A stretch of DNA of 37,514 nucleotides from positions 1 to 37,514 of the forward strand of contig CAIYZX010000150.1 of assembly GCA_903930745.1 (NCBI GenBank), read 5' to 3'. Position 1 is the stretch's first letter, and every line of letters starts with the position of its first letter. This DNA is from an uncultured Chloroflexota bacterium. Lineage in GTDB: Bacteria > Chloroflexota > Limnocylindria > Limnocylindrales > CSP1-4. The notes below the pieces were generated by a model, which had not been told where the DNA came from, made no database searches, and saw only the letters and a list, made by a program, of their open reading frames with translations. The position numbers were made by a program, and so were the translations under genes. Below are positions 5,657 to 34,847 of the stretch, piece by piece.

Positions 5657-6710
5657 ATTCCTCGTCGCCCGTCGGGATCGTGATCTTGTGCTCTTCGTGC
5701 AGCCTTCGGACCACGACGACGATGTCGTCCTGCTCCTTGATGATCGTGGACCTCGGGGTCTTCTTGCCGGTCTCCATCTCCTCGACGAGCTGCTCGCGCA
5801 CGCGGACGGACACGGCGCCCATGAACGCCTCCTTCAGCGCGCGGTCGGCTCCACGCAGCGCCGTCGCAAGGTTGTCCAGCTGGATCTCGCGAGCGATCGT
5901 GGCAATGTCGTTCCGGTCGAGCTTGATGATGTCGTCGAAGACGAACATCTTCTTGCGGACGTCGGCGGCCAGGCCCGGATCCCGCCGTTCGATGTCCTCG
6001 AGGATCGCCTTGGACGCGCTCTGGTCGATGTTGTTCAGGACCTGCGCGAGGGCGTCGTTTCCGCCGACGCGGGCCGTGGCCGCCTGCTCGTTGCGCAGCA
6101 CGCGCACACGGATGCCGTCCTCCAGCTGCGCGATCGCGGCCTCCGGCAGGTCCCGGTCGCCCGTGGCGGCGATGCGCTCCGCCACGTCGTACGACAGGTC
6201 CGGCGGCAGGAGACCCAGCACGTTGGCCGCGTGGCGCGCCTCGAGATGGGCGAGGACGATGGCGATCGTCTGCGGGTGCTCCTGCTGGAGGTGGGCGGCG
6301 ACCTGGTCGTCGGTGACCTTCGTGAGGAACTCGAAGCGCTTGCGCTGCTGCTTCTGGACCACGCGGTCCATGAGCGCGATGCCCCTGTCCTCGCCGAACG
6401 CCTCCACGAAGAGGTCGAAGGCGTAGGACTGGCCTCCCTCCATGTCGCCCATCTCGGAGAACAGGCCGCTGTACGCCTCCTCGAGGATGAAGGCCCTGTG
6501 CTCGGCGGGAACGCTGCGGATCTGGAAGATCTCCGCGGCGATCTTCTCCTGCAGCTCCGTGTCAGATCCCGCGAGCGCCTTCATGATGGATGCCGCCGGA
6601 CCCGTCCCGATGGTGATCATCAGGTAGGCAACCTTGCGGAGCCCCGTCATCGAGGGAATGGGCGCGTGCGCCGGCACCGGCGCGACCTGGGGAGTGGGCA
6701 GTTCGGTCAT
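5649..6710 (-). CDS. fliG: flagellar motor switch protein FliG
   Basis: 353 aa. KVAYLMITIGTGPAASIMKAL N-domain, conserved MFVFDDI motif, and C-terminal torque-helix region (LRGADRALKEAFMGAVSVRVREQLVEEME). Confidence 0.95.
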   Translation of the reverse strand: MTELPTPQVAPVPAHAPIPSMTGLRKVAYLMITIGTGPAASIMKALAGSDTELQEKIAAEIFQIRSVPAEHRAFILEEAYSGLFSEMGDMEGGQSYAFDLFVEAFGEDRGIALMDRVVQKQQRKRFEFLTKVTDDQVAAHLQQEHPQTIAIVLAHLEARHAANVLGLLPPDLSYDVAERIAATGDRDLPEAAIAQLEDGIRVRVLRNEQAATARVGGNDALAQVLNNIDQSASKAILEDIERRDPGLAADVRKKMFVFDDIIKLDRNDIATIAREIQLDNLATALRGADRALKEAFMGAVSVRVREQLVEEMETGKKTPRSTIIKEQDDIVVVVRRLHEEHKITIPTGDEEYV

Positions 6711-6734
6711 CTGGTGGTCTCAGGGCGGCCGCGC

Positions 6735-8378
6735 CTAGCGGCGCCGCCGGTTCTCGTCTTCGTTGAGCCAGGCCCGCGCCATGCGAGCGACGGGCTCCGG
6801 GTTCTGGCCGGCCACGTTCTGGATGTGCTCCAGGGCGCGCTGCTGGGCGGACGGCGGCGCCGGAGCCTCCGGGATCTCGCCGTAGCCGCCGGCGCCAAGG
6901 GCGGCGAAGGACATGTCCCCGGCGCCCAGGGCGGCCATCGGCATGCGCGCGGCGGACAGCTGCATCTCCTCGGCGCGGCGGCCGAGGGCACGCATGTTGC
7001 GCCAGGCGAGGAAGAGCAGCGCGGCAAGGGCGAGGCCGCCGCCCACCTGCGGCAGCACGCCGCCCACGGTCTCCATGATCCCCGCGGACTCGGCCGCAAC
7101 GGCGGTGGCGTCCTTGGCGGGGTCGTAGAAGGCCACCGGCTGGACTTGCAGGCAGTTGGCGTCCGCGACGCAGCCGCCCTTGTCGTCCAGCTGCAGCGAC
7201 GCGATGCCCGCGGTTGCGGCGATGGCGTTCGTGAGGCTGGCGGAGTCAACGCCCTGGGCCTGCAGCGCCGCCTGGTCCAGCAGGACCGCGACGGAGACGC
7301 GCTTCACGGTGCCCGGCATGCTGATGATCTGCTGGACGGTCTGGGTGTTGGCCCAGTTGACCGTGGTGGTGTGCTTCACGTAGGTGTCGGGGCCGATCGA
7401 CGCCGAGGGTGCCGCCGACGCCGAGGGGTCCGGCGACGCCGAGGCGTTGGGGTAGGTGATCCCGGCCACGTTGGAGGCCGTGCCCGCGATGCCGCCCGCG
7501 GCCGCGGCCGCATCCTGGCCCTGCAGCTCGACGCTGTCCTGGGCGGAGGTGGGCGCGCCCTGCTCGATCCTCGTGACCTGTTCGGTGATCTTCTGGAGGT
7601 CCACGTCCGCGCTCACGGCGACCTGGCTGTGGCCCGCACCGAGCGTGGCATTCAGGAGGGCGGTCACCTTGTTCGCGATGTCGCGCTCGATGGTGGCCTT
7701 GATCGTGACGGCATCGCCGGCGGCGGTTGACGGCCCGTGGAGCGTGGTGCCGTTGGCGTCCACCACCGTCACGTTGTCCGGGGAGAGCTTCGCCACGGCA
7801 CCGGAGACCAGCGCCACGATGCCCGTCACCTGGTCGCCGGACGGCTGCCCGCCGCCCGCCATCTTGATCCACACGGACGCGCTGGCGGGCTGGTCGTTGG
7901 AGGCAAGCGTGCCGGTCTTGGCCGGGACGATGGTCACGGATGCGTCGGAGACGCCACGGATGCTCTTGATCTTGCCGGTCAGGTCGCCCTGTAGCGCACG
8001 CTGGTACTTGACCTGCTGGTCGAACTCGGTGGCGCCGAAGCCCTGCTGGTCGAACATCCCGAACCCGGTGCTTGAGCCGTCCGCGGTGTAGCCGGCGTCG
8101 CTGGCGGCGATCTTGGCGCGGGCGGCATCCGCCGCGGCCACCTTGATCGTGGCCCCGCCATCGGCGAGGTCGTACTCGATCCCGGCGCCGTCGAGGGCGG
8201 CCGTGACGGTGGAGGCTGACTGCATGTCCAGGCCGCCGAACGCCACGACCATCTGCGGCTGCCCGGCCCACATCACGAGACCCACGAGCAGCAGCACGGA
8301 GAAGAGGGCACCGAAGACGATGCCGATCCGCTGGCTGATCGTAAGGGTCCGGACGAGGGAGACGAGCTGGTCGATCAT
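6735..8378 (-). CDS. fliF: flagellar MS-ring protein FliF
   Basis: 547 aa. N-terminal TM IGIVFGALFSVLLLVGLVMW, a second TM GGLALAALLFLAWRNM near the C-terminus, and typical FliF periplasmic ring-building motifs in between. Confidence 0.93.
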   Translation of the reverse strand: MIDQLVSLVRTLTISQRIGIVFGALFSVLLLVGLVMWAGQPQMVVAFGGLDMQSASTVTAALDGAGIEYDLADGGATIKVAAADAARAKIAASDAGYTADGSSTGFGMFDQQGFGATEFDQQVKYQRALQGDLTGKIKSIRGVSDASVTIVPAKTGTLASNDQPASASVWIKMAGGGQPSGDQVTGIVALVSGAVAKLSPDNVTVVDANGTTLHGPSTAAGDAVTIKATIERDIANKVTALLNATLGAGHSQVAVSADVDLQKITEQVTRIEQGAPTSAQDSVELQGQDAAAAAGGIAGTASNVAGITYPNASASPDPSASAAPSASIGPDTYVKHTTTVNWANTQTVQQIISMPGTVKRVSVAVLLDQAALQAQGVDSASLTNAIAATAGIASLQLDDKGGCVADANCLQVQPVAFYDPAKDATAVAAESAGIMETVGGVLPQVGGGLALAALLFLAWRNMRALGRRAEEMQLSAARMPMAALGAGDMSFAALGAGGYGEIPEAPAPPSAQQRALEHIQNVAGQNPEPVARMARAWLNEDENRRRR

Positions 8379-8414
8379 GGTGGTTCAGGCCTCTGGGCGA
8401 ACGACGGGGGACCG

Positions 8415-8837
8415 TCAGATCTGCAGGCGCATCAGCTCCTGGTAGGCCTCGAGCAGCTTGTCGCGGACGGCGATGCCGGTCTTGAGACCGATCGACGCCT
8501 GCTGCAGCTCGAGCATCACGGTGTGGAGGTCGGCGGAGCCACCGGAGGCGAAGCTCGCCATCGACGCGTCCGCGGAGTTGAGCTGGGCGTTGAGGTTGCC
8601 CAGAGCGTCACCCAGCGAGTCCAGGAAGGACCCGCCGGCGGGGGAGGGCTCGGTGCCGCCGGAGATGCCGGTGATCCCCGCCGTGCCGTTGACGCCGCCG
8701 ATGGACGAGACGCCGCCCGCCGCCCCGGGGGCCGCAGCGCCGGCTGCACCCGCGACGGAGCCCGCGCCGCCGAGGGCGGCCGAACCCGTCGTCCGGAGCA
8801 GCGAGGAGATCCCGCCGAGCGGATCGATCGCGGCCAT
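8415..8837 (-). CDS. fliE: flagellar hook-basal body complex protein FliE
   Basis: 140 aa. The C-terminal FLDSLGDALGNLNAQLNSADASMASFASGGSADLHTVMLELQQASIGLKTGIAVRDKLLEAYQELMRLQI matches the FliE family. The Gly/Ala-rich N-terminus is longer than usual. Confidence 0.88.
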   Translation of the reverse strand: MAAIDPLGGISSLLRTTGSAALGGAGSVAGAAGAAAPGAAGGVSSIGGVNGTAGITGISGGTEPSPAGGSFLDSLGDALGNLNAQLNSADASMASFASGGSADLHTVMLELQQASIGLKTGIAVRDKLLEAYQELMRLQI

Positions 8838-8839
8838 CG

Positions 8840-9244
8840 TCAGCGCCCGATCTCGATGGCGTCGGTGGCGGACTGCTTCGCCGCCGCCGTGACCGTGGCG
8901 TTCATGGAGTAGGAGCGGGCCGCGCCCATCAGGTCCGCCATGTTCGCGGCCACGTCCACGTCCGGGTAGGAGACGAAGCCCTGCGCGTCGGCATCCGGAT
9001 GCGTCGGGTCGTACACGCGGATCGGGTCCCCGCCCACTGCGGCCACACCCGTGACGGCGACGCCGGGGGTGGCGTCATTGCCCAGGGAGACGGCGGAGAA
9101 GACCGGTGCGACGGCCTGGTACGGGCCACCCTGCGCGGTGCGGGTGGAACGCTGGTTGGCGAGGTTGGACGCCGCCGTGTCCATGCGGAAGCGCTCGGCC
9201 GTCAGGCCTGACGCAGCGATCCGCATCGTGTCGAAGACGCTCAT
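8840..9244 (-). CDS. flgC: flagellar basal-body rod protein FlgC
   Basis: Internal ATG at 9244 of track ORF 8840..9412, preceded by GGGAG 5 nt upstream. MSVFDTMRIAASGLTAERFRMDTAASNLAN, VYDPTHPDADAQGFVSYPDVD and ARSYSMN all match FlgC. Confidence 0.92.
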   Translation of the reverse strand: MSVFDTMRIAASGLTAERFRMDTAASNLANQRSTRTAQGGPYQAVAPVFSAVSLGNDATPGVAVTGVAAVGGDPIRVYDPTHPDADAQGFVSYPDVDVAANMADLMGAARSYSMNATVTAAAKQSATDAIEIGR

Positions 9245-9368
9245 TGAACTCCCAGCCTTCAAGTGTTCCGGCGAACGACCGCATGTTCGGCCGGAGGCCC
9301 GTCCAACAACATCGGGGCATCCCCCCAGAACCCGGCGGTGCCGCCTGCACGGTCGTGGTGAGGGCAGA

Positions 9369-9384
9369 CCCCGAGGCCTCGGGG
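9369..9384. promoter_or_regulatory. perfect 16-bp palindrome ccccgaggcctcgggg in the divergent flgC / kinase intergenic region
   Basis: Read directly; the sequence is self-complementary over all 16 nt. Lies 125 nt upstream of the flgC start. Candidate operator for a dimeric regulator, or a short hairpin. Confidence 0.3.
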
Positions 9385-9450
9385 TGCTCCCCCACGAACG
9401 GCGTAGCACCACGCTGCGAATGGGCCGTCCGGGTTGCCGGATCGGCGGAT

Positions 9451-9456
9451 TACACT
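9451..9456 (+). promoter_or_regulatory. possible -10 box TACACT (TANNNT) for a leaderless kinase transcript
   Basis: The hexamer ends 7 nt before ATG 9464 and there is no Shine-Dalgarno in between. This fits the leaderless-mRNA pattern common in GC-rich Gram-positives. Weak evidence. Confidence 0.25.
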
Positions 9457-9463
9457 CGGACCG

Positions 9464-10726
9464 ATGGAGCGCAGGATGGACGCCGAGGTCGAGCGGATCC
9501 TTGCCGGTGCCCAGCTCTGGGCCCGCCTGGAGCCGGGACCGGGCGCCGGCGCGCAGCCGTCACCCGGCGAGCTGGGGCTCGTGGCCGGCTGGGAGGACGG
9601 TTACGCGGGATGCGTTCCATTCGCCGCAGGCGACGGCGCGGACCAGTGCCGAGCGTGTCCGGTGGCCGTGGTGACCGCGGCGATCACCACCGGGCGGCCC
9701 GCGTTGGACACCTGCCCCAACAACCAGCGGCTGCTCGCATTCCCCGCGCCGGCGGGCTCCCGCTCGTCCGCGGCGGTGCTGCGAATGGAGCCCTCGGGCA
9801 CCGCCGAGGCGCCAGTGGCCGGTGCGGATGTGCTCCGGGCCGCGCACCGCCTCCGCTCCGCGAGCGGGCTGCTCGCCTGGCAGGTGGACCAGCGCCAGCG
9901 GGGCGCAGACCGGCGGAGGACGGCCGCCGCGGCCCTGGCCCAGATGATCGCCACCACGGAGGAGTTCCACCGGCTCTACACCAGCGCCAATCGCGATCGA
10001 GCCTCGTCCGAGCAGGCGGCGACGCGCCTGGACACGCTGGCGCGTGAGACCCTGCGCGAGAGCGAGCAGGCGCGCGTCCACGTGGCGCATGTCCTCCACG
10101 ACACCGCCGCGCAGTCGATGGTGAGCGCCCACCGCTTCATGGAGGCCGCCCGGGCATCGCTCGGCGGCACGCGCCCGGAGAACACGCCACGCCACCTCGA
10201 TGCCGCCCAGGAGCGCCTGCTGACCGCGATCCGCGAGGTCCGGATCGTGCTCAACACCCTGGTCCCGCCAGGCCTCGAGGAGCTGGGCCTCGCGAACGCC
10301 CTCAAGATCCAGGTCCGCGACAACGTGCCGGGCGCCATCGCCACCTCGGTCACGGGCGAGCTTCCGCGGACCGAGGGCTGGCTGGAATCGGAGCTCTTCG
10401 CGCTCACCGTGGAGGCAATCACGAACGCGGTACAGCACGCGGAGTGCTCCAGAATCGCGATCGATCTGCGCGCAGCGCGCGGGCACGGCATCATCACGGT
10501 CACCGACGACGGGATCGGCTTCGATCCCGCGGCGGCCAGGCGACAGACCCAGGAGGGCATCGGCCTGATCGGGATGACCCGGCGTGCGAGCTGGCTCGGC
10601 GGAAGAGTGGACGTCACGAGTCGCGCCGGACAGGGCACCACCATTCGAATCTCCGCACCGCTCGTTGAGCCAGAGGGAGCAGACGAGCCGGACAAGGCAG
10701 CCCCGGGAGGACCACAGGAACCATGA
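9464..10726 (+). CDS. cytoplasmic sensor histidine kinase, HisKA_3/NarL-partner class (DegS-like), with Cys4 N-terminal domain
   Basis: Track ORF starts at TTG 9434; ATG 9464 or ATG 9476 are alternatives in the same frame. H-box HVAHVLHDTAAQS, N-box VEAITNAVQHA, G-boxes DDGIGF and GIGLIGMTRRASWLGG. No TM segment. Confidence 0.88.
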   Translation: MERRMDAEVERILAGAQLWARLEPGPGAGAQPSPGELGLVAGWEDGYAGCVPFAAGDGADQCRACPVAVVTAAITTGRPALDTCPNNQRLLAFPAPAGSRSSAAVLRMEPSGTAEAPVAGADVLRAAHRLRSASGLLAWQVDQRQRGADRRRTAAAALAQMIATTEEFHRLYTSANRDRASSEQAATRLDTLARETLRESEQARVHVAHVLHDTAAQSMVSAHRFMEAARASLGGTRPENTPRHLDAAQERLLTAIREVRIVLNTLVPPGLEELGLANALKIQVRDNVPGAIATSVTGELPRTEGWLESELFALTVEAITNAVQHAECSRIAIDLRAARGHGIITVTDDGIGFDPAAARRQTQEGIGLIGMTRRASWLGGRVDVTSRAGQGTTIRISAPLVEPEGADEPDKAAPGGPQEP

Positions 10727-11400
10727 GCGAAGGACCCAGCCGCGTCCTGCTGATCGACGATCACGAGATGTCCCGCCGTGGCCTTGAGGCCATGCTCTCC
10801 ACCGCGGACTGGGTGGAGGTGGTGGGCGAGGCGGACGGGTGCGAGCCCGGCCTCGCGCAGATCGCACGCCTCCAGCCGGACATCGTCCTCCTGGACATCC
10901 GCATGCCGGGACTGGACGGGCTCTCCTGCCTTGACGAGATCAAGAAGCTGGAGCACCCGGTGGCCGTGGTCATCGTGACGCTCTACAACGACCGCCGGTA
11001 CGTCCTTGAGGCGATCCGCCGCGGTGCCGCGGGCTACGTGCTCAAGGAGGCCTCCACGCAGGAGATCCTGGCCACGATCCAGGCGGTGGCCGATGGCCAG
11101 CTCGCCGTGGAGCCCGGCCTGCTCCGCGAGGCCCTCATGGCCCCGGCGGAGGAGCCGGCCGCCGAGGAGACCGCGCGCGCCCGTGCCGAGTCCTTCGCCC
11201 TCACGCCCCGCGAGCTGGACGTCCTGCGTCTCCTCGCGGACGGCATGACGAACAAGGAGATCGGCGGCCAGCTCTCCATCGCCGAGGACACGGTCAAGAA
11301 GCACGTCCAGAACATCATCTGGAAGCTCCGGGCCGCGGACCGCACGCAGGCCGCCATCGTGGCCTACAGGGCGGGGCTCCTGGATCCCGTCGAGGGATAG
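10723..11400 (+). CDS. NarL/LuxR-family response regulator (REC + HTH_LuxR)
   Basis: VLLIDDH...IVLLDIRMPGLDG...VLKEA receiver. C-terminal LTPRELDVLRLLADGMTNKEIGGQLSIAEDTVKKHVQNI LuxR-type HTH. ATGA overlap with the kinase stop. Confidence 0.93.
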   Translation: MSEGPSRVLLIDDHEMSRRGLEAMLSTADWVEVVGEADGCEPGLAQIARLQPDIVLLDIRMPGLDGLSCLDEIKKLEHPVAVVIVTLYNDRRYVLEAIRRGAAGYVLKEASTQEILATIQAVADGQLAVEPGLLREALMAPAEEPAAEETARARAESFALTPRELDVLRLLADGMTNKEIGGQLSIAEDTVKKHVQNIIWKLRAADRTQAAIVAYRAGLLDPVEG

Positions 11401-13343: not shown

Positions 13344-13375
13344 GCGCTGGCACGAACAGGAGGCCTGCAACCACC

Positions 13376-13735
13376 ATGGCGAAGATCCTCGTCGTCGACG
13401 ACGCCGCGTTCATGCGGCTTCGGGCGGTGAAGCTGCTCGCCGAAGCCGGGCATACCGTCTACGAGGCGGAGAACGGCCGGATGGCGATTGACGTCTACAA
13501 GGCTGAGAAGCCGGACGCCGTGCTCATGGACATCACGATGCCGGAGATGGACGGCCTTGAGTCGCTCTCCGAGATCCGCAAGATCGACCCGGGCGCGAAG
13601 GTGGCGATGCTGACGGCCATGGGCCAGCAGTCCATCGTCATGGACGCGATCAAGCGCGGTGCGCGAGACTTCGTCGTGAAGCCGTTCGCTCCCGATCGTG
13701 TCCTGGGCGCGGTGGACAAGCTGCTCTCCGCCTGA
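13376..13735 (+). CDS. cheY: chemotaxis response regulator CheY
   Basis: Internal ATG 13376 of track ORF 12959..13735, preceded by ACAGGAGG. MAKILVVDDAAFMR...AVLMDITMPEMDG...MLTAMG...FVVKPF. Single REC domain, 119 aa. Confidence 0.93.
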   Translation: MAKILVVDDAAFMRLRAVKLLAEAGHTVYEAENGRMAIDVYKAEKPDAVLMDITMPEMDGLESLSEIRKIDPGAKVAMLTAMGQQSIVMDAIKRGARDFVVKPFAPDRVLGAVDKLLSA

Positions 13736-14944: not shown

Positions 14945-14976
14945 CGGGGAGCCGGCCTTGTCCGGCGGGCTCCCCG
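14945..14976. terminator. GC-rich hairpin between convergent cheB and the receiver gene (bidirectional terminator candidate)
   Basis: cggggagccggcc-ttgt-ccggcgggctccccg: 9 bp, one mismatch, then 3 bp of stem. No U-tract, as is common in GC-rich genomes. Confidence 0.5.
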
Positions 14977-14988
14977 TGAGACCCCGCC

Positions 14989-15705
14989 TCAGACGCGCCT
15001 GGTGATCCTCGCGAGCTCCTGCTTCAGGATGTTCGCCTCGGACAGGACCATCTCGAAGGCGGAGTTGCGCTGGTTCTCGTTGAGCGTCTTGTCGCCGGCG
15101 ACGGCCACAGCGTCCACCAGGCGGCCGGCCCCCAGGAGCGCCGCCGGCTCCCGGAACCTCCGCAGCAGCTCCAGGCGCTCCACGAGGTCCTTGCGGTCCT
15201 GGGCATCCCGCATCCGCGCGATCAGCTCGTCGAGGCGGGTCTCGGCCTTCTCCACGAGGAAGCGATACTCGGTCTCGTCCTCCAGGTCCAGGCGTGCGAT
15301 GGCCTCGAACTTGGCCTCGATCACGGGGGTCGCGCGGAGCAGCAGCTCCGTGACCTTCTCCGTCAGGAGCGCGGGCCGTACGGGCTTCACGAGGAAGTTC
15401 CGCACGCCGGCGTCGATCGCCTCCTTGACCTGCTTCTCCTCCGCCTCGCCCGTGGCCACGATGACCGGGATCTGCGCGTAGCGAGGGTTGCTGCGCAGGA
15501 AGCGGAAGAACGGCAGCCCCTTCATCCGCCCGGGCAGATCCGTGTCCATGATGATCAGGGTGGCCGAGGCGTCGTTCTTGAGCCACTCCAGGGCTGCCTC
15601 GGCCGAGCCAACCTCGACGGAGTCCTGGGCCGGCTTGAGACGCAGCAGGGTCTTTGCGTAGAGGTGCCGCGAGACGGGGTCGTCGTCAACGATGAGGACG
15701 GTCAC
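14989..15705 (-). CDS. response regulator: REC domain + ~110-aa helical C-terminal domain (His-less HPt-like)
   Basis: MTVLIVDDDPVSR...TLIIMDTDLPG...VIVATGE...FLVKPV receiver. The C-terminal half is all-helical, contains no His, and includes LELLRRFREPAALLGAGRL. 4-nt overlap with the hybrid kinase stop. Confidence 0.85.
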   Translation of the reverse strand: MTVLIVDDDPVSRHLYAKTLLRLKPAQDSVEVGSAEAALEWLKNDASATLIIMDTDLPGRMKGLPFFRFLRSNPRYAQIPVIVATGEAEEKQVKEAIDAGVRNFLVKPVRPALLTEKVTELLLRATPVIEAKFEAIARLDLEDETEYRFLVEKAETRLDELIARMRDAQDRKDLVERLELLRRFREPAALLGAGRLVDAVAVAGDKTLNENQRNSAFEMVLSEANILKQELARITRRV

Positions 15706-18700
15706 GGCGCAACCTCTCCAAGCGTCTCGGCCGGGCGCGCACCGCCGCTCCCGTGCCGCTCCTTGTCGCCTCCGGGGACCGTCGCGCCGGCGGTGGCGGC
15801 GTCCCCCGGCGTCATCGTCGCATAGGCGCGCCGGTCCTGGTGGACGCTGGCGGGAGTCCAGGCGCGGCGCCCAGAGCGCGAGAGCTCCCGCAGCGCCCCA
15901 ACGGTCTCGGCGAACGATCCGTCCAGGGCGTCGTAGATGGACTCCGCTCCGTCCAGCGTCCCCGCCTTGCCCAGGCTGTCCAATCCCCTGGCGAGGGCGT
16001 ACATCCGCATGGCGCCGATCTGGCCACAGCCGCCCTTGAGCTTGTGGGCGGCCTTCTGCATCGCGTCCACGTCCCCGCTGTCGATGGCGTCCGCGATCCG
16101 TCCGAGGAGGTCCGGCGTCTCGACCGCGAACACGTTCACGATGTCACCGAGCACCGCGAGACCGCCTTCGTCGTCCAGCATGCCGATGCCGCGTAGCTGG
16201 CCCTCGTCAACGAGCGCCGACAGCCTGGCCTCCTGCAGGCCCTCCGTCACGGCCCGTGTCCCGCCGGACTCGACCGGCCAGGACGGCATGGCGGGTCGCG
16301 TGGCTCCGGCGCTCGAACCCGAGCCGGCCCCATCGGCTTCGGCACCTGGAGATGCCGCTGGGGCACCGGGCGCGTGTCGTTCGGCAACGGTCCCGCCACG
16401 GGGCCCGATGATGCGGACCAGGGCCTCGGCGAGCTGCGAGCGACTCACCGGCTTCGCGATGTAGTCGTCCATCCCCGCCTCGAGACAGCGCTCGCGATCA
16501 CCGGTCATGGCGTTCGCGGTCATGGCGAGGATGGGCAGGCGCGGCAGGTGCTCGTCCGCCTCGCGGGCACGGATCCGGCGCGTTGCGTCAAACCCGTCCA
16601 GCTCCGGCATCTGGCAGTCCATCAGCACCACGTCGTACGAGGCCCGGGCCAGCGCCTCGAGTGCCTCCACGCCGTCGCCGGCGATCTCCACGACGCATCC
16701 GAGCCGCTCCAGCAGGAGCGTGGCCAGCCGGGCGTTGACGGCGTTGTCCTCGGCCAGCAGGACGCGGCTGCCGTTGAGGCGGCCGGCGCCGGCGCCCGGG
16801 TCGTCGGCGTGCTCGTGGACGGGTGTCAGCGTGGCGCCCTCCACCGCGAAGAGGCCCTCCAGGATCCCGTGCAGCTCCGCCTGGTGGATGGGCTTGCGCA
16901 GGTAGGTCGCGATGCCGGCGGCCGCGGTGCGCCCGGAGATGGCACGTCTGCCTGGGGCCGCGAGGAGCACCAGGCGTGTGCCGGCGAGGGACGGGTCCTC
17001 CTTGACCAGCCGTGCGAGCGTGAAGCCGTCGGCGATGGGCATGGTCTCGTCCACCAGGCCCACGTCCACGGGCGCACCCGCGGCGATCGCCCCACGAAGG
17101 ACGCTGAGGGCCTCCGGGCTGGTCGCCGCCGTCATGACCGTGAAGCCCCATGACCGGAGCTGGTGGCCGAGGATCTCGCGCTGCGTGGCGTTGTCGTCCA
17201 CCACGAGGGCCCGCCGGCCCGCGAGCCCTGTGCTGGGCATGGCGGGGGCAGGCGCGGTCTCCGCCACATCGAACCGCGATGTGCACCAGAAGGTGCTCCC
17301 GGTGCCCACGGTGCTGTGGACCCCAACCGTTCCGCCCATCATCTCCGCCAGCTGGCGGCAGATCGCGAGCCCGAGCCCGGTGCCGCCGTAGCGGCGCGAC
17401 ATGCTGCCATCCGCCTGCGTGAACGGACGGAAGAGGCGAGGCAGCGTCTCCTGCGGGATCCCGATCCCGGTGTCGCGGACGGCGAACCGCAGCAGGACCG
17501 TGCCGTCATGCCCGTCGTCCTCGAGGGTCACGCGTGCCACCACCTCGCCCGCCTCCGTGAACTTCAGCGCGTTCGACAGGAAGTTGAGGATGACCTGCCG
17601 CAGGCGGGCGGGGTCGCCGCGAAGGCTCGCCGGGATGTCCTCGTCCACGACAGAGACGAGCTCCAGGCCGCGTGCCGCTGCCGGCTCCGCGAAGAGGTCG
17701 ATGGCGCTCTCGACAGTCTCCCGCAGGTCGAAGTCGATCGTCTCGAGGTCCAGCCGCCCGGCCTCGATCTTGGAGAAGTCAAGGATGTCGTTGATGATCG
17801 TGAGGAGGGCATCGCCGGACGTGCGGATCATGGAGATCAGCTCGTTCTGGTCGCCGGTGGGGTTGGTCTCCATCAGGAGGTTCGCCGCGGTGAGCACGCC
17901 GTTCATCGGCGTGCGGATCTCGTGGCTCATCGTGGCGAGGAAGGCGCTCTTGGTCCGGTTCGCGGCCTCCGCGGCGTCGCGGGCGCCACGCAGCTCGTCG
18001 GCCGTCCGCACCCGCGCCGTCACGTCGCGATAGAGCCAGAGATGGCCCAGGAGCTCGCCGTCGTGGCGGATGGGCAGGTAGTCCCGCTCCAGCACGCGAC
18101 CGTCAAGGAGACCCACCTCCTCGCCCGTCACCGGCCGGCCCGTGAGGATGAGCTCGTCCACGCCCTGCGCGAAGCCCTCGGCGTCCAGGAAGCGGCCCCG
18201 GATCGCGTCCACGATCACCGGCATCGGCCAGCCGTCAAGCATCCGCGGCGAGAACGGAAGGCCGAAGGCGCTGCAGAAGGCCTCGTTGGCGAGGACCGCG
18301 TGGTGGTGCTCGTCCTCGACGAGCACCGCGGCCTGCAGGTTCTCCACCAGCGTGGCAAGACGCGACGAGGTGGCCCGCAGGGCATCCTCACGCGCCTGCC
18401 GTTCCGTGATGTCCTCGCCCAGGGAGGTCACCGAGGTGATCCGGCCCTCGGCGTCCCGCTGGAAGGTGCGGTTGAACGAGATGAGGCGGCGCTCGCGGAG
18501 CCGCGTGACGACCTCGATCTCCGCGTGGAGCGGAAGGGTTCCGTCCAGCATGGCGCCACGCAGGCCCGCGTCGTACGCGTCCGCCTCCACCGGGTCGTCG
18601 GGGGCGACGAGCGTGGCACCAACGGTGCGGCCGATCAGCTCCTGCCGGGCACGGCCCGTGAGGGTGAGCAGGCGGTCGTTCACGTAGACGACGAGCCCTG

Positions 18701-20186
18701 CCTCATCCACGGTGAGGGCGGCCAGCTGGATCGTGTCCAGCGTCTCGCGGAAGCGCAGCTGGGTCTCGCCCAGCGCCTCCTCCGCATGCCGGCGGGCGGT
18801 GACATCGCGGGAGTTGGTGACGAGAACGGGCTGGCCGTGCTCGTCCTCGATACGCCGGGTCACGGACTCCAGCCATGCCCATCCCCCGTCGGCCGTGGCA
18901 TAGCGGAGGGCCACGGGAAGGCCGTTGGGGCCGTTCGCCGTGAAGGCCGTGACGAACTCGGAGATCAGTCTCCGGCGGTCGTCGGGATGGACGTGGCGGA
19001 GCGTCCGCGTGTGGAGATAGTGGGACGGCGCGTAGCCCAGCACGCGCTCCACGGACGGGCTCATGTAGACGAGGTCGCCGTGCCGGTCGATGATCGCCGT
19101 GATGTCCGAGGAGTTCTCGGTCAGCATCCGGTGGTATTCCTCGCTCCGGCGCAGGCGGGCCTCCGCCTCCAGGCGCGGCGTGATGTCCGAGATCGACCAG
19201 ACGCGGTGGGTCACCACGTCGTGCTCGTCGCGAACGGCGGTGATGACCAGGCGGGCCCAGAACGTGGACCCGTCGCGCCGCGCGACCTCGACATCGCGCC
19301 CGGGCTCCGTCGAGGCGCCCTCCGGCACGAGACCCGCGAGCGGGTTGGCATGGGTGACGAGAGCGGGGGCGGACCACCCGGTGAGCCTGCTGAAGGTGGG
19401 GCTCACGAAGACGACGGGCTGGCGGCCCGCGACCTCCGTGATGAGGATGCCGTCCGGCGACGACGAAAGCGCGCGGTCGCGGATGCGGACCTGGCGGAGG
19501 CCCTCCTCCCTGGCGCGGGCTCCCTGCCGGACCACGGCGAAGACGGCGGCACCGGACAGGATCGGCAGGACCACGCCGGCGACCAGCAGCAGGATGGCAA
19601 GCTGGCCGGCTCCCATCCGCGAGGCCGCGGCGATCATCTGCACCGCCACGTCGGCGTCCTTGGCCTCGGCTTCCACCCAGTTGCCCATGTCCTGGCGCAG
19701 CATGAGGAGTTCCGAGCGGACCGACTTCGGGATCGCGATCGACTCGTCCAGGGGCAGCTCGAGGAGGATGGTCGCGAACGCCGCCTCGATCTCGTTGATC
19801 CTTGCCACGTGGTCGTCGAGCGTCGCCAGGACCCCCGCTCCACGCTCGTCCACGGACACGTCGCGGATCACGTCGCGGAGGCCCACGGAGTGCGCCGTGA
19901 CCTCCCGCAGCGCAGCGAGCAGGCGCCCTCGAGCGCCCCGCTGGGACTCCAGCATGCCCTGGACCTGGGTGGTGACCTCCGACATCCCGGCATCCAGCTG
20001 CTGGCGCTGGGCGGCGATGTGCTCGTTGACGGAGGCGACATCGGCGGCGTGCTGCACCTGCACCGCCGTGTAGAAGATCGCCCCTTCGATCGTCGTGAAG
20101 AGCAGCAGCAGCACCACGAGCTCGAAGCGGCGTGCGCCGCGGGCACGGCTCCGGAACGCGGCCACGACCCCGCCGAGCAGGCTCAC
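15702..20186 (-). CDS. membrane-bound multi-PAS hybrid sensor histidine kinase (2 TM, ~4 PAS-like modules, HisKA, HATPase_c, REC, REC, HPt)
   Basis: 1494 aa with a GTG start. TM segments at aa ~21-43 and ~196-219 flank a ~150-aa outside domain, followed by PAS-like repeats at aa ~235-725. H-box FLATMSHEIRTPMNGV (H755) and G2 box GGTGLGLAICRQLAEMMGG. REC1 ALVVDDNA...GLVDETMP (D1046); REC2 VLLAEDNAVN...VLMDCQMPELDG...IAKP (D1190). HPt AAHKLKGGCGQIGA (H1381). Confidence 0.93.
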   Translation of the reverse strand: MSLLGGVVAAFRSRARGARRFELVVLLLLFTTIEGAIFYTAVQVQHAADVASVNEHIAAQRQQLDAGMSEVTTQVQGMLESQRGARGRLLAALREVTAHSVGLRDVIRDVSVDERGAGVLATLDDHVARINEIEAAFATILLELPLDESIAIPKSVRSELLMLRQDMGNWVEAEAKDADVAVQMIAAASRMGAGQLAILLLVAGVVLPILSGAAVFAVVRQGARAREEGLRQVRIRDRALSSSPDGILITEVAGRQPVVFVSPTFSRLTGWSAPALVTHANPLAGLVPEGASTEPGRDVEVARRDGSTFWARLVITAVRDEHDVVTHRVWSISDITPRLEAEARLRRSEEYHRMLTENSSDITAIIDRHGDLVYMSPSVERVLGYAPSHYLHTRTLRHVHPDDRRRLISEFVTAFTANGPNGLPVALRYATADGGWAWLESVTRRIEDEHGQPVLVTNSRDVTARRHAEEALGETQLRFRETLDTIQLAALTVDEAGLVVYVNDRLLTLTGRARQELIGRTVGATLVAPDDPVEADAYDAGLRGAMLDGTLPLHAEIEVVTRLRERRLISFNRTFQRDAEGRITSVTSLGEDITERQAREDALRATSSRLATLVENLQAAVLVEDEHHHAVLANEAFCSAFGLPFSPRMLDGWPMPVIVDAIRGRFLDAEGFAQGVDELILTGRPVTGEEVGLLDGRVLERDYLPIRHDGELLGHLWLYRDVTARVRTADELRGARDAAEAANRTKSAFLATMSHEIRTPMNGVLTAANLLMETNPTGDQNELISMIRTSGDALLTIINDILDFSKIEAGRLDLETIDFDLRETVESAIDLFAEPAAARGLELVSVVDEDIPASLRGDPARLRQVILNFLSNALKFTEAGEVVARVTLEDDGHDGTVLLRFAVRDTGIGIPQETLPRLFRPFTQADGSMSRRYGGTGLGLAICRQLAEMMGGTVGVHSTVGTGSTFWCTSRFDVAETAPAPAMPSTGLAGRRALVVDDNATQREILGHQLRSWGFTVMTAATSPEALSVLRGAIAAGAPVDVGLVDETMPIADGFTLARLVKEDPSLAGTRLVLLAAPGRRAISGRTAAAGIATYLRKPIHQAELHGILEGLFAVEGATLTPVHEHADDPGAGAGRLNGSRVLLAEDNAVNARLATLLLERLGCVVEIAGDGVEALEALARASYDVVLMDCQMPELDGFDATRRIRAREADEHLPRLPILAMTANAMTGDRERCLEAGMDDYIAKPVSRSQLAEALVRIIGPRGGTVAERHAPGAPAASPGAEADGAGSGSSAGATRPAMPSWPVESGGTRAVTEGLQEARLSALVDEGQLRGIGMLDDEGGLAVLGDIVNVFAVETPDLLGRIADAIDSGDVDAMQKAAHKLKGGCGQIGAMRMYALARGLDSLGKAGTLDGAESIYDALDGSFAETVGALRELSRSGRRAWTPASVHQDRRAYATMTPGDAATAGATVPGGDKERHGSGGARPAETLGEVAP

Positions 20187-21196
20187 GGGCGGAGGTTCCC
20201 ATCAGCGCGGCTGACCCGCGTGGCCGAGGCCCTCGCAACCCGGTTGCAGCCCGACGCCCGGGCGGCGTCCAGCGCCTCGACCGCGCCCTGCAGCCAGGTC
20301 TCCAGGTCGTCCGGGACATCCGTGGGCAGCTCGGCGACACCGGCGCTCAAGGTCACCGTGTCCGCGACGCTGCTCCGCGGGTGCGGGATCCGCAGCGCCG
20401 CGACGCCGGAACGACAGCGTTCCGCCACCGCCACACCGCCGTCCTCGCCCTGCTCCGGGAGCAGCACCAGCACCTGGTCCGCGGCGAACCGGTAGGCGCT
20501 GTCCGCGTCACGGAGGGCCTCGCGGACGATGCGCCCGAGGCGGCCCAGCAGCTCGTCGCGAGCGATGGGCCCGTGCTCCGCGCCGTAGCGGCGCAGGCCG
20601 TCGATGGACAGCAGCACCGCGGTGGCCCGGTGCCCGTAGCGCCGCACGCGCCCGCGCAGCCTGCGCAGGTCCTCGTCCAGGCGCAGCCGATTGCCAAGGC
20701 GAGTGGCGCCGTCCCGGCGGACCTCCTCGCGCAGCCGCTCGTCCCGCGCGCGCAGCTCCTCCTGCTGGACCGCGGCGCGCCGCTCGAGGAGCATGATCCG
20801 GTCCGCCGCGCGCAGCGCGCGGGCGAGGTCCGGTGCGCACACGGGCACCTGGAGCACCGCGTCAACCGCGGCGCCCACGACGTCGTCGGAGGCACCCATG
20901 CCGCCGCCCGCCGCCAGCGCGATGAACGGCGTGTAGGGCAGCCGTCGGTCGCGCTCAGCGTCCCGCAGCCCGGCCAGGAGCGCATGGGCCGGGGTTCCGG
21001 GCTCCGGCCAGCCGGCGATCACCACGTCGGCGGAATGCGATCCGGCAGCCGACCACGCCTGGCCAGCGTCGCGCACCTCCAGGGCCGTGTGGCCCAGCTC
21101 GCGGACGGCGGCGACCACGGCGTCACGGACGGCGGACGTCTCGCCCACCACCATCACGATGCGGTGTGACCCGTCCGCCCGGGACGCTGGACCCAT
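20183..21196 (-). CDS. pseudo-receiver + degenerate GGDEF domain protein (A-site AADQV, I-site RDAD retained); probable non-catalytic c-di-GMP-binding/adaptor protein
   Basis: Start placed at ATG 21196 (GAGGAA 4 nt upstream) inside track ORF 20183..21385. The REC-like fold lacks the conserved DD (VVGETS), the phospho-Asp (VVIAGWPEPG), Thr (ALAAG) and Lys (LQVPV). The GGDEF fold is recognisable (ATRLGNR...LLSIDGLRRYGAEHG...RDADSAYRFAADQVLVLLPE...TLSAGVA). GTGA overlap with the hybrid kinase start. Confidence 0.82.
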   Translation of the reverse strand: MGPASRADGSHRIVMVVGETSAVRDAVVAAVRELGHTALEVRDAGQAWSAAGSHSADVVIAGWPEPGTPAHALLAGLRDAERDRRLPYTPFIALAAGGGMGASDDVVGAAVDAVLQVPVCAPDLARALRAADRIMLLERRAAVQQEELRARDERLREEVRRDGATRLGNRLRLDEDLRRLRGRVRRYGHRATAVLLSIDGLRRYGAEHGPIARDELLGRLGRIVREALRDADSAYRFAADQVLVLLPEQGEDGGVAVAERCRSGVAALRIPHPRSSVADTVTLSAGVAELPTDVPDDLETWLQGAVEALDAARASGCNRVARASATRVSRADGNLRP

Positions 21197-21450
21197 CAGT
21201 TCCTCGTGCTGTCGCGACGCACGGGCGTGACGGCGGCCCGGCGCCACGCATCGTACGCGTGCGCGATCCTGTGCCCCACCCCACGGATGGGGGGATGGAC
21301 CCCTCTGGGCGGCGGTACATCCGGGGACGGAACGGACAGGGCCTCTAGGGGAGAACCCTGATAGGTGATCCGCGGTGCAGGGCATATACCTCGGACAACG
21401 ACCCGCGTCGTCGCCCGGCCACGACCATGCGCCGCAGAGGTGATCAACAG

Positions 21451-21954
21451 ATGACTGCTCTCGCCACCGCCCCCACGATCGCCGGCTCCAAGGGAGCCAC
21501 TGACGAGTTCCAGCTCGTCGTCTTCGAGCTCGGTGACGAGCGCTACGGTCTCGACATCGACAGCGTGTACGAGATCATCCGCCACCAGCCGGTGACCGCC
21601 GTTCCCCAGGCACCCTCGTTCGTCGAGGGCGTGATCAACCTGCGGGGCCGGATCATCCCGGTCGTGGACCTCCGTCGCCGCTTCGGCATGATGACCGGCA
21701 CGCTGACCAAGGCGTCCCGCATCGTCGTGTGCGAGGCCGCCGGGACCCGCGTGGGCCTGGTCGTGGACGGTGTCTCCGAGGTCCTGATGGTCAACAACGA
21801 GTCCGTGGAGCAGACTCCGGACGTGGCCGCGGGCTACGATGCGAACTACCTGCGCGGCATCGCCAAGCTGGGCGACCGGCTCGTGATCCTGCTTGACCTG
21901 GCCGGCCTGTTCGGCGAGGTTGACGCGGCGGCGATCGCCGCCAGCGCGGGCTGA
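21451..21954 (+). CDS. cheW: chemotaxis coupling protein CheW
   Basis: ATG 21451 is preceded by GAGGTGAT (21437-21444) with a 6-nt spacer; the track ORF starts 8 codons earlier. FQLVVFELGDERYGLDIDSVYEII...INLRGRIIPVVDLRRRFG is the CheW family core. Confidence 0.93.
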   Translation: MTALATAPTIAGSKGATDEFQLVVFELGDERYGLDIDSVYEIIRHQPVTAVPQAPSFVEGVINLRGRIIPVVDLRRRFGMMTGTLTKASRIVVCEAAGTRVGLVVDGVSEVLMVNNESVEQTPDVAAGYDANYLRGIAKLGDRLVILLDLAGLFGEVDAAAIAASAG

Positions 21955-22003
21955 TCTTCGCCCAGCCCCGGGCGGTACCCACCGAGGACATGGAGAGGAG
22001 CCA

Positions 22004-22510
22004 ATGAGCCCTGCGGATGCCGGCGGCGCCGGTACGCGCCAGCCAATGCGCGTCCAGCTCGTCAACTGCTACGTCCGCGCGGCCGCGGACGTGATCCACA
22101 GCGAGGGCAAGGTCGCCGTCAAGCGCGGCGGAGTCACGCTCGCCAAGGACGCCTATACCAGCGAAGAGGTCACGGCCATGGTTGGCGTCAACGGCGCCAT
22201 GGGCGGATCCTTCTTCCTCTCCATGTCCGAGGCAACGGCGCTCAACCTGGTTTCCGCCATGATGGACGAGCGCTGCGACGTCTTCGACGAGCTTGCCCAG
22301 AGCGGCATCGCGGAGATGGCCAACGTCGTCGCCGGCGCCGCGAGCATCGGCCTCTCGGAGCTGGGGTACACGACCAACATCACCCCGCCTCTCCTCCTGT
22401 TGGGCGCCAAGGCCAAGATCTCGGCCGTGGAGATCCAGCGCCTTGTGGTCCCCCTGAGCACGGAGCACGGCAACATCAACGTGCACGTGGCCCTCCGCGA
22501 GAACGGCTGA
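22004..22510 (+). CDS. cheX: CheX-type CheY-P phosphatase (CheC/CheX/FliY family)
   Basis: ATG 22004 preceded by GGAGAGGAG. Single E-x2-N site followed by Pro (GIAEMANVVAGAASIGLSELGYTTNITPP). About 168 aa, typical of CheX. Confidence 0.8.
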   Translation: MSPADAGGAGTRQPMRVQLVNCYVRAAADVIHSEGKVAVKRGGVTLAKDAYTSEEVTAMVGVNGAMGGSFFLSMSEATALNLVSAMMDERCDVFDELAQSGIAEMANVVAGAASIGLSELGYTTNITPPLLLLGAKAKISAVEIQRLVVPLSTEHGNINVHVALRENG

Positions 22511-24698: not shown

Positions 24699-26138
24699 AT
24701 GGCCCCGGACGAGGCGCCGCGTCTGCCGTCCAACCGCCCGATCAAGCTGGAGCCGGGACAGGATCCGCCCGCGCCCGGCTCCACGGCGCTGGAGCGGCTC
24801 GCGGCCAAGTACGGCACCGGCGGCCAGGGCGGCCTGCCCGGCGTGTCGTCCGTGTACGGCAAGCCCGGCACGCCGGGCACCTCCGGCGCCACGCCCGCGA
24901 AGCCGGCCACGCCCACACCCGGTGCGCGCCCCGCTCCCCGGCCGGCCCCACGGCCCTCCGCCGCCACGCCCGTCCACCAGCCGACCGGTGGCCGCCCGCT
25001 GCACGTGCCCGGTGACACGGTGGCGGAGCGCGTGGCGTACCGGCTCGCACTCAAGCGCGGGCAGATCGAGCCGGGCGCGCCCGGGAGCTCCGTTCCGCCC
25101 CGGCCCGCGGCGGCAACCTCGTCCGCCGCCCCCGCGAGCGCCCCCAGGACCGCGCCTGCCGCCCCGAGAGCGCCGCTGGCGTCGTCGTCGGCCACCGGCG
25201 CCACCTCCGGCTCCGTGACGTCTTCCCGGCCCGCATTCGCGCTGGAGCGCCCGCGCCTCGACACGCGCCGCCCGGCCCCGGCCGACGGCGCCCCGGCACC
25301 CGCCCCGAAGCGCCCCGTTGCGCCGCTCAACCCGCCCACGCCCGCGGAGATCGAGGCGTCCGTGGACCACGAGATGTACGAGGCCTACGCCGGACTGGTG
25401 AAGAGTCTCCTGGGCTTCGACCTCACCCAGTACAAGCGGCCCCAGGTCTGGCGCCGCTCCATGTCGTTCGCGAAGCAGAAGGGCTGCCGCGACGTCATCG
25501 AGCTGATGGAGCGCTGCCGGACGGACCTGGACCTGCGCACCGCGGTGCGCGACATGATCACGATCAACGTCAGCGAGTTCTTCCGCAACCCGGACGCGTG
25601 GGAGTCCCTGCGCACCGCCGTGCTGCCGGAGCTCCTGCGCATGGGCCGGCCAATCAGGTTCTGGAGCGCCGGCTGCTCGCTGGGCTATGAGCCGTACACC
25701 TTCGCCATGATGGTCAAGGAGGCCGGGGGCGGCGATGCCAAGATCCTGGCCACGGACCTCGACGAGACGATCCTCGCCCAGGCGCGAGCCTCGGTCTACG
25801 CGGACCACCAGATGGTGGGCGTCTCACCCGCCCGGCGCGCGAAGTTCTTTGACGAGCGGGACGCCACCTGGTCCGTGAAGCCGGAGCTGCGCTCGATGAT
25901 CCAGTGGCGGCGCCAGGACCTGCTCCGGGACCCGTTCCCGTCAGACCTTGACCTGATCGCCTGTCGCAACGTCGTGATCTACTTCACGGACGACGCGAAG
26001 GACGGGCTGTACCGCCGGTTCACGCAGGCGCTGCGCGTCGGCGGGACGCTCTTCATCGGCGCCACGGAGGCCATCGGCAGCGCCCGGTCCTTCGGGCTCC
26101 AGATGGTCACGTCCGGCCTCTACCGCCGCGTGGAGTAG
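24699..26138 (+). CDS. cheR: chemotaxis methyltransferase CheR with ~215-aa Pro/Ala-rich N-terminal extension
   Basis: CheR core from aa ~215: INVSEFFRNPDAWE, RFWSAGCSLGYEPY (SAM-binding), ACRNVVIYF. Third positions in the extension, read codon by codon from 24699, are almost all G/C, which supports translation from 24699. That start lies 2 nt after the cheA stop. Confidence 0.85.
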   Translation: MAPDEAPRLPSNRPIKLEPGQDPPAPGSTALERLAAKYGTGGQGGLPGVSSVYGKPGTPGTSGATPAKPATPTPGARPAPRPAPRPSAATPVHQPTGGRPLHVPGDTVAERVAYRLALKRGQIEPGAPGSSVPPRPAAATSSAAPASAPRTAPAAPRAPLASSSATGATSGSVTSSRPAFALERPRLDTRRPAPADGAPAPAPKRPVAPLNPPTPAEIEASVDHEMYEAYAGLVKSLLGFDLTQYKRPQVWRRSMSFAKQKGCRDVIELMERCRTDLDLRTAVRDMITINVSEFFRNPDAWESLRTAVLPELLRMGRPIRFWSAGCSLGYEPYTFAMMVKEAGGGDAKILATDLDETILAQARASVYADHQMVGVSPARRAKFFDERDATWSVKPELRSMIQWRRQDLLRDPFPSDLDLIACRNVVIYFTDDAKDGLYRRFTQALRVGGTLFIGATEAIGSARSFGLQMVTSGLYRRVE

Positions 26139-32125: not shown

Positions 32126-32129
32126 GGCG

Positions 32130-34845: not shown

Positions 34846-34847
34846 GG

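Follow-up and report, generated by a model that had tools for sequence, protein, structure and literature searches.

What is a large sensory kinase doing in the middle of a chemotaxis gene cluster, and to which partners does it speak? The question is raised by a 37,514-nt contig of an uncultured Chloroflexota bacterium (CAIYZX010000150.1; the whole stretch, with a base composition of 72% GC, is called the window below), in which three adjacent minus-strand genes are set among chemotaxis (che) and flagellar (fla) genes. The first encodes a WspR-like pseudo-enzyme of 337 amino acids (aa) with the order receiver (REC)–coiled coil–GGDEF (20183..21196; Pfam GGDEF, E 4.6e-23, and alignment with the WspR structures 3bre and 3i5a), the second a membrane multi-PAS hybrid histidine kinase of 1494 aa (15702..20186; Pfam, hydropathy and orthologue alignment), and the third a 238-aa response regulator in which a CheY-like receiver is joined to a predicted four-helix bundle resembling a histidine phosphotransfer (HPt) domain devoid of its histidine (14989..15705). 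The reading that we favour, with a probability of roughly 0.55, is that of a dedicated multistep phosphorelay fed by PAS domains, which would belong to the flagellar regulon and constitute a lineage-specific part of the flagellar/chemotaxis supercluster in one uncultured Chloroflexota clade, the three window genes forming one translationally coupled operon. Confidence in any specific output of the relay is lower.

Position and conservation of the module

In an earlier note on this DNA the three genes had been described as a minus-strand unit joined by a GTGA overlap and a 4-nt overlap, convergent with cheB and divergent from cheW, and the open reading frames (ORFs), the junction sequences and the flanking gene order agreed with that description. 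The GC content by codon position was typical of real genes in all three frames (0.91-0.95 at third positions, GC3), both junctions consist of a GTGA in which the GTG start of the downstream gene overlaps the stop codon of the upstream one, and the 4-nt overlaps recurred in all the called orthologous loci. Converging on the trio, the plus strand encodes a HisKA_3 kinase, a LuxR-type regulator, FlaG, a CheC/X-like protein, CheD, CheY and CheB, and the genes for CheW, CheX, CheA and CheR diverge from it. The outer flanks hold FlgB/C-like rod genes with FliE, FliF, FliG, FliH and FliI on one side, and FliD, FliS, flagellin and glycosylation-type genes on the other.

The orthologous loci compared comprised the window, L001-L008, L035-L037, L043-L054 and two contigs with gene calls only. 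In every locus with informative flanks (about 20), kinase and receiver were found as a pair between cheW and cheB, the kinase gene overlapping the receiver gene from upstream, the receiver facing cheB and cheW-cheX-cheA-cheR lying on the far side. In the kinase tree, which has two clades, the GGDEF gene accompanies the pair in clade A (window, L001, L035, L036) and is missing from clade B (L003, L004, L007, L008, L037), as it is from L052. The conserved unit is the kinase and receiver pair, and the GGDEF gene is a clade A accessory; the linkage to che and fla genes that had been anticipated for the whole trio held for the pair in all the loci examined, but for the GGDEF gene in clade A only. 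Among the loci with informative flanks, no ortholog turned up at an unrelated position, all of them lying in the che/fla cluster. Full-length receiver orthologues were recovered from metagenomes and metagenome-assembled genomes (MAGs) only, and among 185,579 species representatives three carried the receiver, all labelled as Chloroflexota or 'Chloroflexia' MAGs.

The kinase and receiver module evolves much faster than its Che neighbours. Identity to the window proteins was 49-65% for the kinase, 48-57% for the 238-aa receiver and 49-57% for the GGDEF protein, as compared to 70-91% for CheA, 83-96% for CheW, 88-96% for CheY, 79-92% for CheB and 92-97% for the LuxR-type regulator. Among the orthologues, identity ranged between 37 and 60% in the HPt domain of the kinase, 52 and 70% in the REC domain of the receiver, and 40 and 50% in the receiver tail.

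Two separate lineages show a decayed che core. In the first (L004/L005/L051), cheA, cheR, cheB, cheY and cheC were lost and cheW is a 29-codon remnant (decayed regions at 4540-5225 and 10979-11461 of L004); in the second (L035/L044/L045), cheA, cheR and cheW were lost, cheB and cheC survive as remnants of 27 and 44 codons, respectively, and cheY was kept (9139-9657 and 16123-17333 of L035). In both lineages cheX, cheD and the flagellar genes are intact together with the kinase and the receiver, which are full length and retain their sites; the GGDEF gene is intact too in L035/L044/L045. The chemotaxis core looks like one in decay in flagellated Chloroflexota and, since kinase and receiver remain intact where cheA is gone, the module may work alongside the CheA pathway and largely independently of it.

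The kinase, its receiver partner and the proposed relay

Pfam recognised four PAS regions, HisKA, HATPase_c, two Response_reg domains and an Hpt domain in the kinase, and hydropathy indicated two transmembrane segments (TM1, 24-42; TM2, 198-216) on either side of an extracytoplasmic loop of about 155 aa. Nowhere is the protein more variable than in this loop (19-39% identity among orthologues). In the L036 kinase (4832-9448) the loop is much shorter, the second hydrophobic segment being found at about 99-117 instead of about 198-216, which suggests that the outside sensor is dispensable or replaced in some lineages. Along the four cytoplasmic PAS domains (residues ~236-735; 17982..19481; Pfam PAS, PAS_3, PAS_4, PAS_8 and PAS_9), identity to the orthologues climbs from 46-57% in PAS1 to 65-87% in PAS4; the kinase is best conserved in PAS4 and the catalytic core (65-91%), and the HPt domain and the linkers stand at the lower end. 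The LOV motif (NCRFLQ) was not seen when the PAS sequences were read by eye.

The kinase has the H-box, the HATPase_c domain, the receiver aspartate and the HxxKG histidine of a multistep-phosphorelay hybrid kinase. Its HisKA and HATPase_c core (17280..17951; Pfam E-values of 2.2e-19 and 7.1e-30, respectively) carries H755 (codon 17922-17924) within the H-box SHEIRTPMNG, identical throughout the alignment of the window kinase with seven orthologues. Two receivers follow, namely REC1 (16842..17210; D1046, codon 17049-17051), which is atypical in having Ala or Glu in place of the Thr/Ser switch residue, and the canonical REC2 (16419..16763; D1190, codon 16617-16619); the HPt domain (15915..16142; Pfam Hpt, E 3.1e-12) contributes H1381 (codon 16044-16046) in the motif HKLKGG. 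All four phospho-sites were kept in the seven orthologues. The residues singled out in the earlier note, i.e., these four and D54 of the receiver, were all recovered where it had placed them and in the expected motifs, and the full His-Asp-His-Asp relay in cis that it described is indeed encoded. The kinase is a generic unorthodox hybrid kinase and not a named equivalog: it reached none of the NCBIfam models for TorS, BarA, ArcB, RcsC and LuxQ, the similarity to TorS (the best, 446.6 bits vs. a cut-off of 676.5), BarA (430 vs. 890), RcsC and LuxQ being sub-threshold.

The CheY-like domain of the 238-aa protein (15352..15699; Pfam Response_reg at residues 3-118) presents D7-D9, D54 (codon 15544-15546), T85, F104 and K107, and the active-site residues D7-D9, T/S85, Y/F104 and K107 are kept among its orthologues. 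Its best PDB match, by sequence as well as by fold, was CheY1 of H. pylori (E 1.9e-25, 36% identity, TM-score 0.84 normalised to the target). Against the NCBIfam CheY equivalog model it scored 39.5 with respect to a cut-off of 189, and the genuine CheY is encoded separately at about 13370-13735.

The tail of this protein (residues 123-238; 14992..15339) left no trace in two of the searches: the PDB sequence search with the receiver profile gave matches covering residues 1-120 only, none of them to the tail, and Foldseek with the full-length model returned receiver-domain matches only, uninformative on the tail. The tail modelled by itself with AlphaFold (AF2) had a mean predicted local distance difference test (pLDDT) of 92 and a predicted TM-score (pTM) of 0.84, and when this model was compared with the PDB by Foldseek, the best 14 and most of the top matches were HPt domains (E 0.025-0.15), including the HPt of a Shewanella hybrid kinase (3myf, TM-score 0.78), fungal Ypd1-type proteins, HptB, plant AHPs and the HPt of BarA. 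A conserved motif of the tail, R-[FV]-R-E-P-A-A-L-L-G-A-x-R, was placed by hhalign in register with the H-K-L-K-G…I-G-A-x-R of the kinase, the His falling on R182 (codon 15160-15162), in a weak alignment (P = 0.01). Pfam Hpt did not match the window tail and matched two of 16 family members (best E 1.8e-4). A profile search among 1.84 billion representatives yielded 27 relatives, nearly all of them REC–tail proteins of 230-250 aa; the contigs of two distant ones (P0093 and P0109) were too short for an informative context. The HPt position is occupied by R, Q, G or P, and never by His, in 24 orthologues, and His is likewise absent in 19 wider relatives. A functional HPt domain in the receiver tail was rejected since no family member has the His, and a tail devoid of it cannot relay phosphate. 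Judging from the modelled fold, we take the tail to be an HPt domain that lacks its His (a pseudo-HPt), so that the 'HPt-like tail' of the earlier note finds a counterpart in the predicted fold, but not in a phospho-accepting residue. A likeness between this motif of the tail and the c-di-GMP-binding motif of MshEN was considered and set aside, as the residue at the position of the conserved Gly varies.

On these grounds we propose that the membrane kinase senses through its variable extracytoplasmic loop and its four cytoplasmic PAS domains and autophosphorylates on H755, from where the phosphoryl group would move to D1190 of REC2, then to H1381 of the kinase's own HPt domain, and finally to D54 of the co-translated 238-aa receiver, the putative cognate terminal partner. 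That HPt domain and receiver form a cognate, co-evolving pair is suggested by the overlap of their genes and by the fast divergence of both, CheY and CheB being nearly fixed. REC1 (D1046) could serve as an extra regulatory or input receiver. Since the 238-aa protein possesses neither a DNA-binding nor an enzymatic output, it would act by contact with other proteins, be it the flagellar switch or the receiver domains of Che proteins, and its His-less bundle may provide a receiver-docking surface unable to carry phosphate, as a decoy or a tether. In clade A the WspR-like protein would most likely be an accessory that binds cyclic di-GMP (c-di-GMP) via its inhibitory site (I-site) and modulates the kinase.

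A narrower proposal concerns the 238-aa protein itself. The plant protein AHP6 is a His-less pseudo-HPt that inhibits a phosphorelay by competition. By analogy, and with considerable doubt on our side, the 238-aa protein might represent a new class of bacterial motility regulators, made of a CheY-like receiver and a His-less HPt 'decoy', in which, upon phosphorylation or when locked by Glu54, the bundle docks onto the receivers of CheY, CheB or the kinase, or the receiver engages the flagellar switch. In either case metabolic or redox signals, joined by c-di-GMP in clade A, might take precedence over CheA-based chemotaxis or stand in for it. Such a bacterial counterpart of AHP6 would account for the persistence of the module after the che core genes are lost.

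Several observations weigh against the phosphorelay that we favour. In 6 of 24 receiver orthologues (P0013, P0016, P0023, P0027, P0029, P0030) D54 is replaced by Glu, a change of independent origin in each of the two clades; the receivers concerned cannot accept phosphate in the conventional way, so that a model driven strictly by phosphorylation loses strength, and the D54E forms may be locked or phosphorylation-independent. The Foldseek E-values of the tail are modest, helical bundles match easily, and the sequence evidence for an HPt ancestry is weak. A distant REC–tail relative (P0089) is located among housekeeping genes, so that a link to motility does not extend to the entire family. The che-decayed loci are metagenome contigs, and a second che cluster elsewhere in the same genomes is possible. 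Moreover, the phosphotransfer steps, the binding of c-di-GMP and the contact with the motor have all been deduced from sequence.

Alternative inputs and outputs

Among the alternatives, a central role of c-di-GMP survives best, and it depends on the GGDEF protein. This protein aligns over residues 13-321 of its 337 to residues 20-335 of WspR (3bre), and more weakly to PleD; the REC–helical linker–GGDEF architecture of the WspR/PleD type was found in full, comprising an N-terminal pseudo-receiver that the earlier note had missed. The GGDEF domain scored 82 bits with Pfam PF00990 (cut-off 23.8) and 73.8 bits with TIGR00254 (cut-off 37.4). Its gene starts at 21196 with an ATG preceded by a GAGGA Shine-Dalgarno sequence. 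A longer reading of 400 aa (to 21385) was rejected, because GC3 upstream of 21196 drops to 0.65 vs. 0.91 within the gene, indicating a non-coding extension, and because, besides that Shine-Dalgarno sequence, the orthologues measure 334-342 aa.

The alignment of this protein family comprised 16 clade members and four more distant homologues. The I-site motif RxxD (R229 and D232, RDAD in the window) was invariant in 20/20 and stands five residues upstream of the degenerate active-site motif, which reads AADQV in the window (238-242; the two motifs span 20471..20512). GG[DE]EF was present in none of the 16 clade members, 11 of which have Gln at the fourth position, and all four distant homologues have GGEEF. 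An active diguanylate cyclase was rejected in view of AADQV. The receiver domain (20822..21163) is degenerate as well, with Gly at the acceptor position (G62), G-E as acidic pair and Val at the Lys position (V117), and Pfam Response_reg did not match it in the window protein, but did so in most orthologues. The acceptor Asp is retained in 12/16 clade orthologues and replaced by Gly in the window protein and in its 78% identical relative P0043. With AADQV, Asp replaced by Gly and Lys by Val, the window protein would be neither a cyclase nor a phosphorylatable regulator, i.e., doubly degenerate, and having lost its phospho-acceptor it would no longer depend on phosphorylation. The suggestion of a non-catalytic partner, made in the earlier note, is therefore well supported by these motifs, and that the protein binds or senses c-di-GMP is plausible. 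A graded series from signalling enzyme to pseudo-enzyme emerges, from GGEEF with an intact receiver, through a dead cyclase with the receiver Asp, to a dead cyclase with a dead receiver.

One relative with a canonical GGEEF (P0078, in L041) is overlap-coupled to a kinase of the PAS-HK-REC-REC-HPt type (HK, histidine kinase core), which matches the window kinase with 37% identity over ~1040 residues, in the HK-REC-REC-HPt core and part of the PAS region; this kinase has an N-terminal CHASE3 sensor and its contig is without motility genes. The coupling of P0078 to a kinase with a similar core points to an old partnership between kinase and REC-GGDEF protein, which was probably recruited to the che/fla locus.

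It could then be argued that c-di-GMP is the key input, bound by the degenerate GGDEF protein at its I-site to gate the kinase, and that the trio is a brake from c-di-GMP to motility. The invariant RxxD alongside the loss of the catalytic motif in 16/16 clade members speaks in its favour, as do the GTGA coupling of the GGDEF gene to the kinase in the clade A loci and the documented use of the I-site by degenerate GGDEF effectors, e.g., CmrA (bioRxiv 10.64898/2026.08.21.746235). In L037, a clade B locus, an HD-GYP-type (HD_5/HD) gene lies within the che cluster, inserted with a 136-aa ORF between cheR and cheA (440-1483), and it is possibly another c-di-GMP link in a lineage devoid of the GGDEF gene. 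On the other hand, the RxxD is also kept by active cyclases, and its conservation is no proof of a receptor role, and the GGDEF gene is missing from the whole of clade B (with L052), where kinase and receiver are otherwise alike. Since clade B has kinase and receiver only, c-di-GMP sensing, which the earlier note had named among the inputs, cannot be central. We consider a brake of this kind rather unlikely, and within the phosphorelay that we favour c-di-GMP is a plausible but optional input.

A second alternative places the output in the chemotaxis pathway itself: the kinase would be a PAS-driven phosphodonor whose phosphorylated H1381 directly serves CheY, CheB or both and bypasses CheA, the 238-aa receiver being a sink or competitor. 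The location of the module between cheB/cheY and cheW/cheA in all loci fits such a role, and L035/L044/L045, without cheA, cheW, cheR and cheB, keep cheY, cheX (CheY-P phosphatase family) and cheD by the intact trio, a retention of CheY that makes sense if it is still phosphorylated by something. L004/L005, however, lost both cheY and cheB with kinase and receiver intact, and one would expect a surface that serves CheY to change little, in contrast to the several-fold faster evolution of HPt domain and receiver than of CheY and CheB. The overlap-coupled receiver is also the more economical partner. The che-decayed loci and the rates thus argue against the transfer from HPt to CheY and CheB as the main route, which had been contemplated in the earlier note and which we now hold to be doubtful.

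Still less probable is a two-component system that hitch-hikes in the che locus with an output unrelated to motility, e.g., biofilm or stress. Multi-PAS HK-REC-REC-HPt kinases and REC-GGDEF partners do occur in loci without motility genes, the distant REC–tail relative among housekeeping genes is of the same tenor, and the module differs from the Che proteins in its rate of evolution. A passenger would nonetheless hardly account for a fixed position in ~20 loci of two clades whose kinases are only ~50% identical, for the retention of the module by the flagellar genes through independent deletions of che neighbours on both sides, or for a receiver that is CheY-like and without transcriptional output. 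Control of flagellar gene expression, with phosphate passed to the adjacent LuxR-type regulator (10723-11400) or its HisKA_3 kinase modulated, appears very unlikely, for although this pair lies by flaG and the basal-body genes in every locus, with the regulator 92-97% identical across the clade and retained in the che-decayed loci, the regulator already has its own overlapping kinase and its extreme conservation contrasts with the fast-evolving HPt domain.

Where the receiver gene converges with cheB, the 59 nt that separate them contain a 13-bp GC-rich inverted repeat (14945..14976) that is likely a bidirectional transcript end, overlooked by a simple terminator scan as it is without a T-tract. 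The 230-nt divergent region between the trio and cheW (21197..21426), non-coding by GC3, presumably holds the promoters of both operons; no sigma-70 consensus was found in it. In neither intergenic region did simple scans for sigma-70 promoters and terminators give anything usable, as expected for a non-model organism with this GC content.

Other genes of the window deserve mention. The HisKA_3 kinase and LuxR-type regulator are encoded between the basal-body genes and flaG (9434-11400), and the regulator, conserved at least as much as CheY across the clade, may be the master regulator of the flagellar regulon. The CheR ORF (479 aa) bears an N-terminal extension of ~220 aa (24699-25370), Pro/Ala-rich, with high GC at second codon positions (GC2), a coding-like GC3 of 0.92 and no Pfam domain, which is present in L001 (484 aa) and absent from clade B (271 aa). 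The CheX ORF (21893-22510), 205 aa long when read from a TTG, shares 62 nt with cheW; its real start is probably ~33 codons downstream, since CheX of the relatives measures 172 aa. A 152-aa ORF without Pfam match (2950-3408), between the fliI-like ATPase and M23/SLT peptidoglycan hydrolase genes, is probably a divergent FliJ, because the gene at the corresponding position of L004 matches FliJ. Past flagellin, the minus strand (29948-37397) encodes a 725-aa double glycosyltransferase, a formyltransferase-like protein, a protein with an APS-kinase domain and a PEP-utilising enzyme, probably a flagellin glycosylation or modification island.

Comparison with known systems

Within the Chloroflexota, flagella and chemotaxis are uncommon and have not been studied (PMC13212565). 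The literature search brought up general or partial precedents, and no combination of hybrid kinase, GGDEF protein and receiver in a flagellar che locus; it found neither a bacterial His-less REC–HPt family, 'pseudo-HPt' occurring only in plant papers among those searched, nor a case in which such a module survived the decay of the che core.

The kinase shares with those of the ArcB/BarA/TorS type the common HisKA-HATPase-REC-HPt core with its conserved H, D and H sites, and the pairing of a hybrid kinase with a REC-GGDEF protein, seen here and in L041, recalls Hk1–Rrp1 of Borrelia. Compared with both, it has two receivers, four PAS domains and a variable sensor loop between two transmembrane segments, together with a dead GGDEF partner upstream, a second partner with a putative pseudo-HPt tail and a setting within a flagellar che cluster. 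The GGDEF protein resembles WspR of the Pseudomonas Wsp chemosensory system and PleD in the REC–coiled-coil–GGDEF order, the che-type cluster and the RxxD motif, and differs from them by AADQV in place of GG[DE]EF (x-G-[DE]-Q in most relatives), by Gly in place of the acceptor Asp and by Val in place of Lys. PopA, SgmT and PelD are degenerate-GGDEF effectors of c-di-GMP. A non-catalytic domain with a preserved I-site is common to this group and to the protein described here, the link to motility and chemotaxis being shared with CmrA; in contrast, the protein of the window combines a pseudo-REC domain with a coiled coil, is coupled to a hybrid kinase, and its binding of c-di-GMP is putative.

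A positional analogy is offered by the Che3 cluster of Rhodospirillum centenum, in which a PAS-type hybrid kinase and a single receiver (CheS3/CheY3) likewise occur within a che cluster. There, CheA3 phosphorylates a receiver domain of CheS3, and only phosphorylated CheS3 phosphorylates CheY3; Che3 is an alternative-function cluster that controls cyst formation and lacks flagellar genes, and CheS3 is without HPt (PMC3868531). By analogy with CheS3, REC1 could be a possible input from CheA. Differently from Che3, the module in Chloroflexota is part of a flagellar cluster, its kinase has an HPt domain, its receiver carries the predicted pseudo-HPt tail, and it survives without cheA.

With AHP6 and HPt proteins in general, the tail of the 238-aa receiver has in common the predicted four-helix bundle and the register of its motif with HxxKG…LGA, the His being absent as in AHP6; it differs in being bacterial and fused to a receiver, and the window protein falls short of the Pfam Hpt threshold. 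The Caulobacter Cle proteins are CheY-like motor regulators with a short Arg-rich C-terminal tail. With CheY and Cle the receiver shares the Asp pocket, the Thr, the aromatic switch residue and the Lys, and with Cle a C-terminal extension as well, which is however a predicted 115-aa helical bundle, and its acceptor Asp is Glu in a quarter of the orthologues.

Overall, the parts are of known kinds and none of the individual chemistries is new, but the arrangement is undescribed, the His-less REC–HPt family being its newest element. In one Chloroflexota clade a second pathway with a sensory kinase would appear to have been built into the flagellar locus and to be kept even where the CheA pathway decays, which would make the module a natural test case for CheA-independent control of the flagellar motor.

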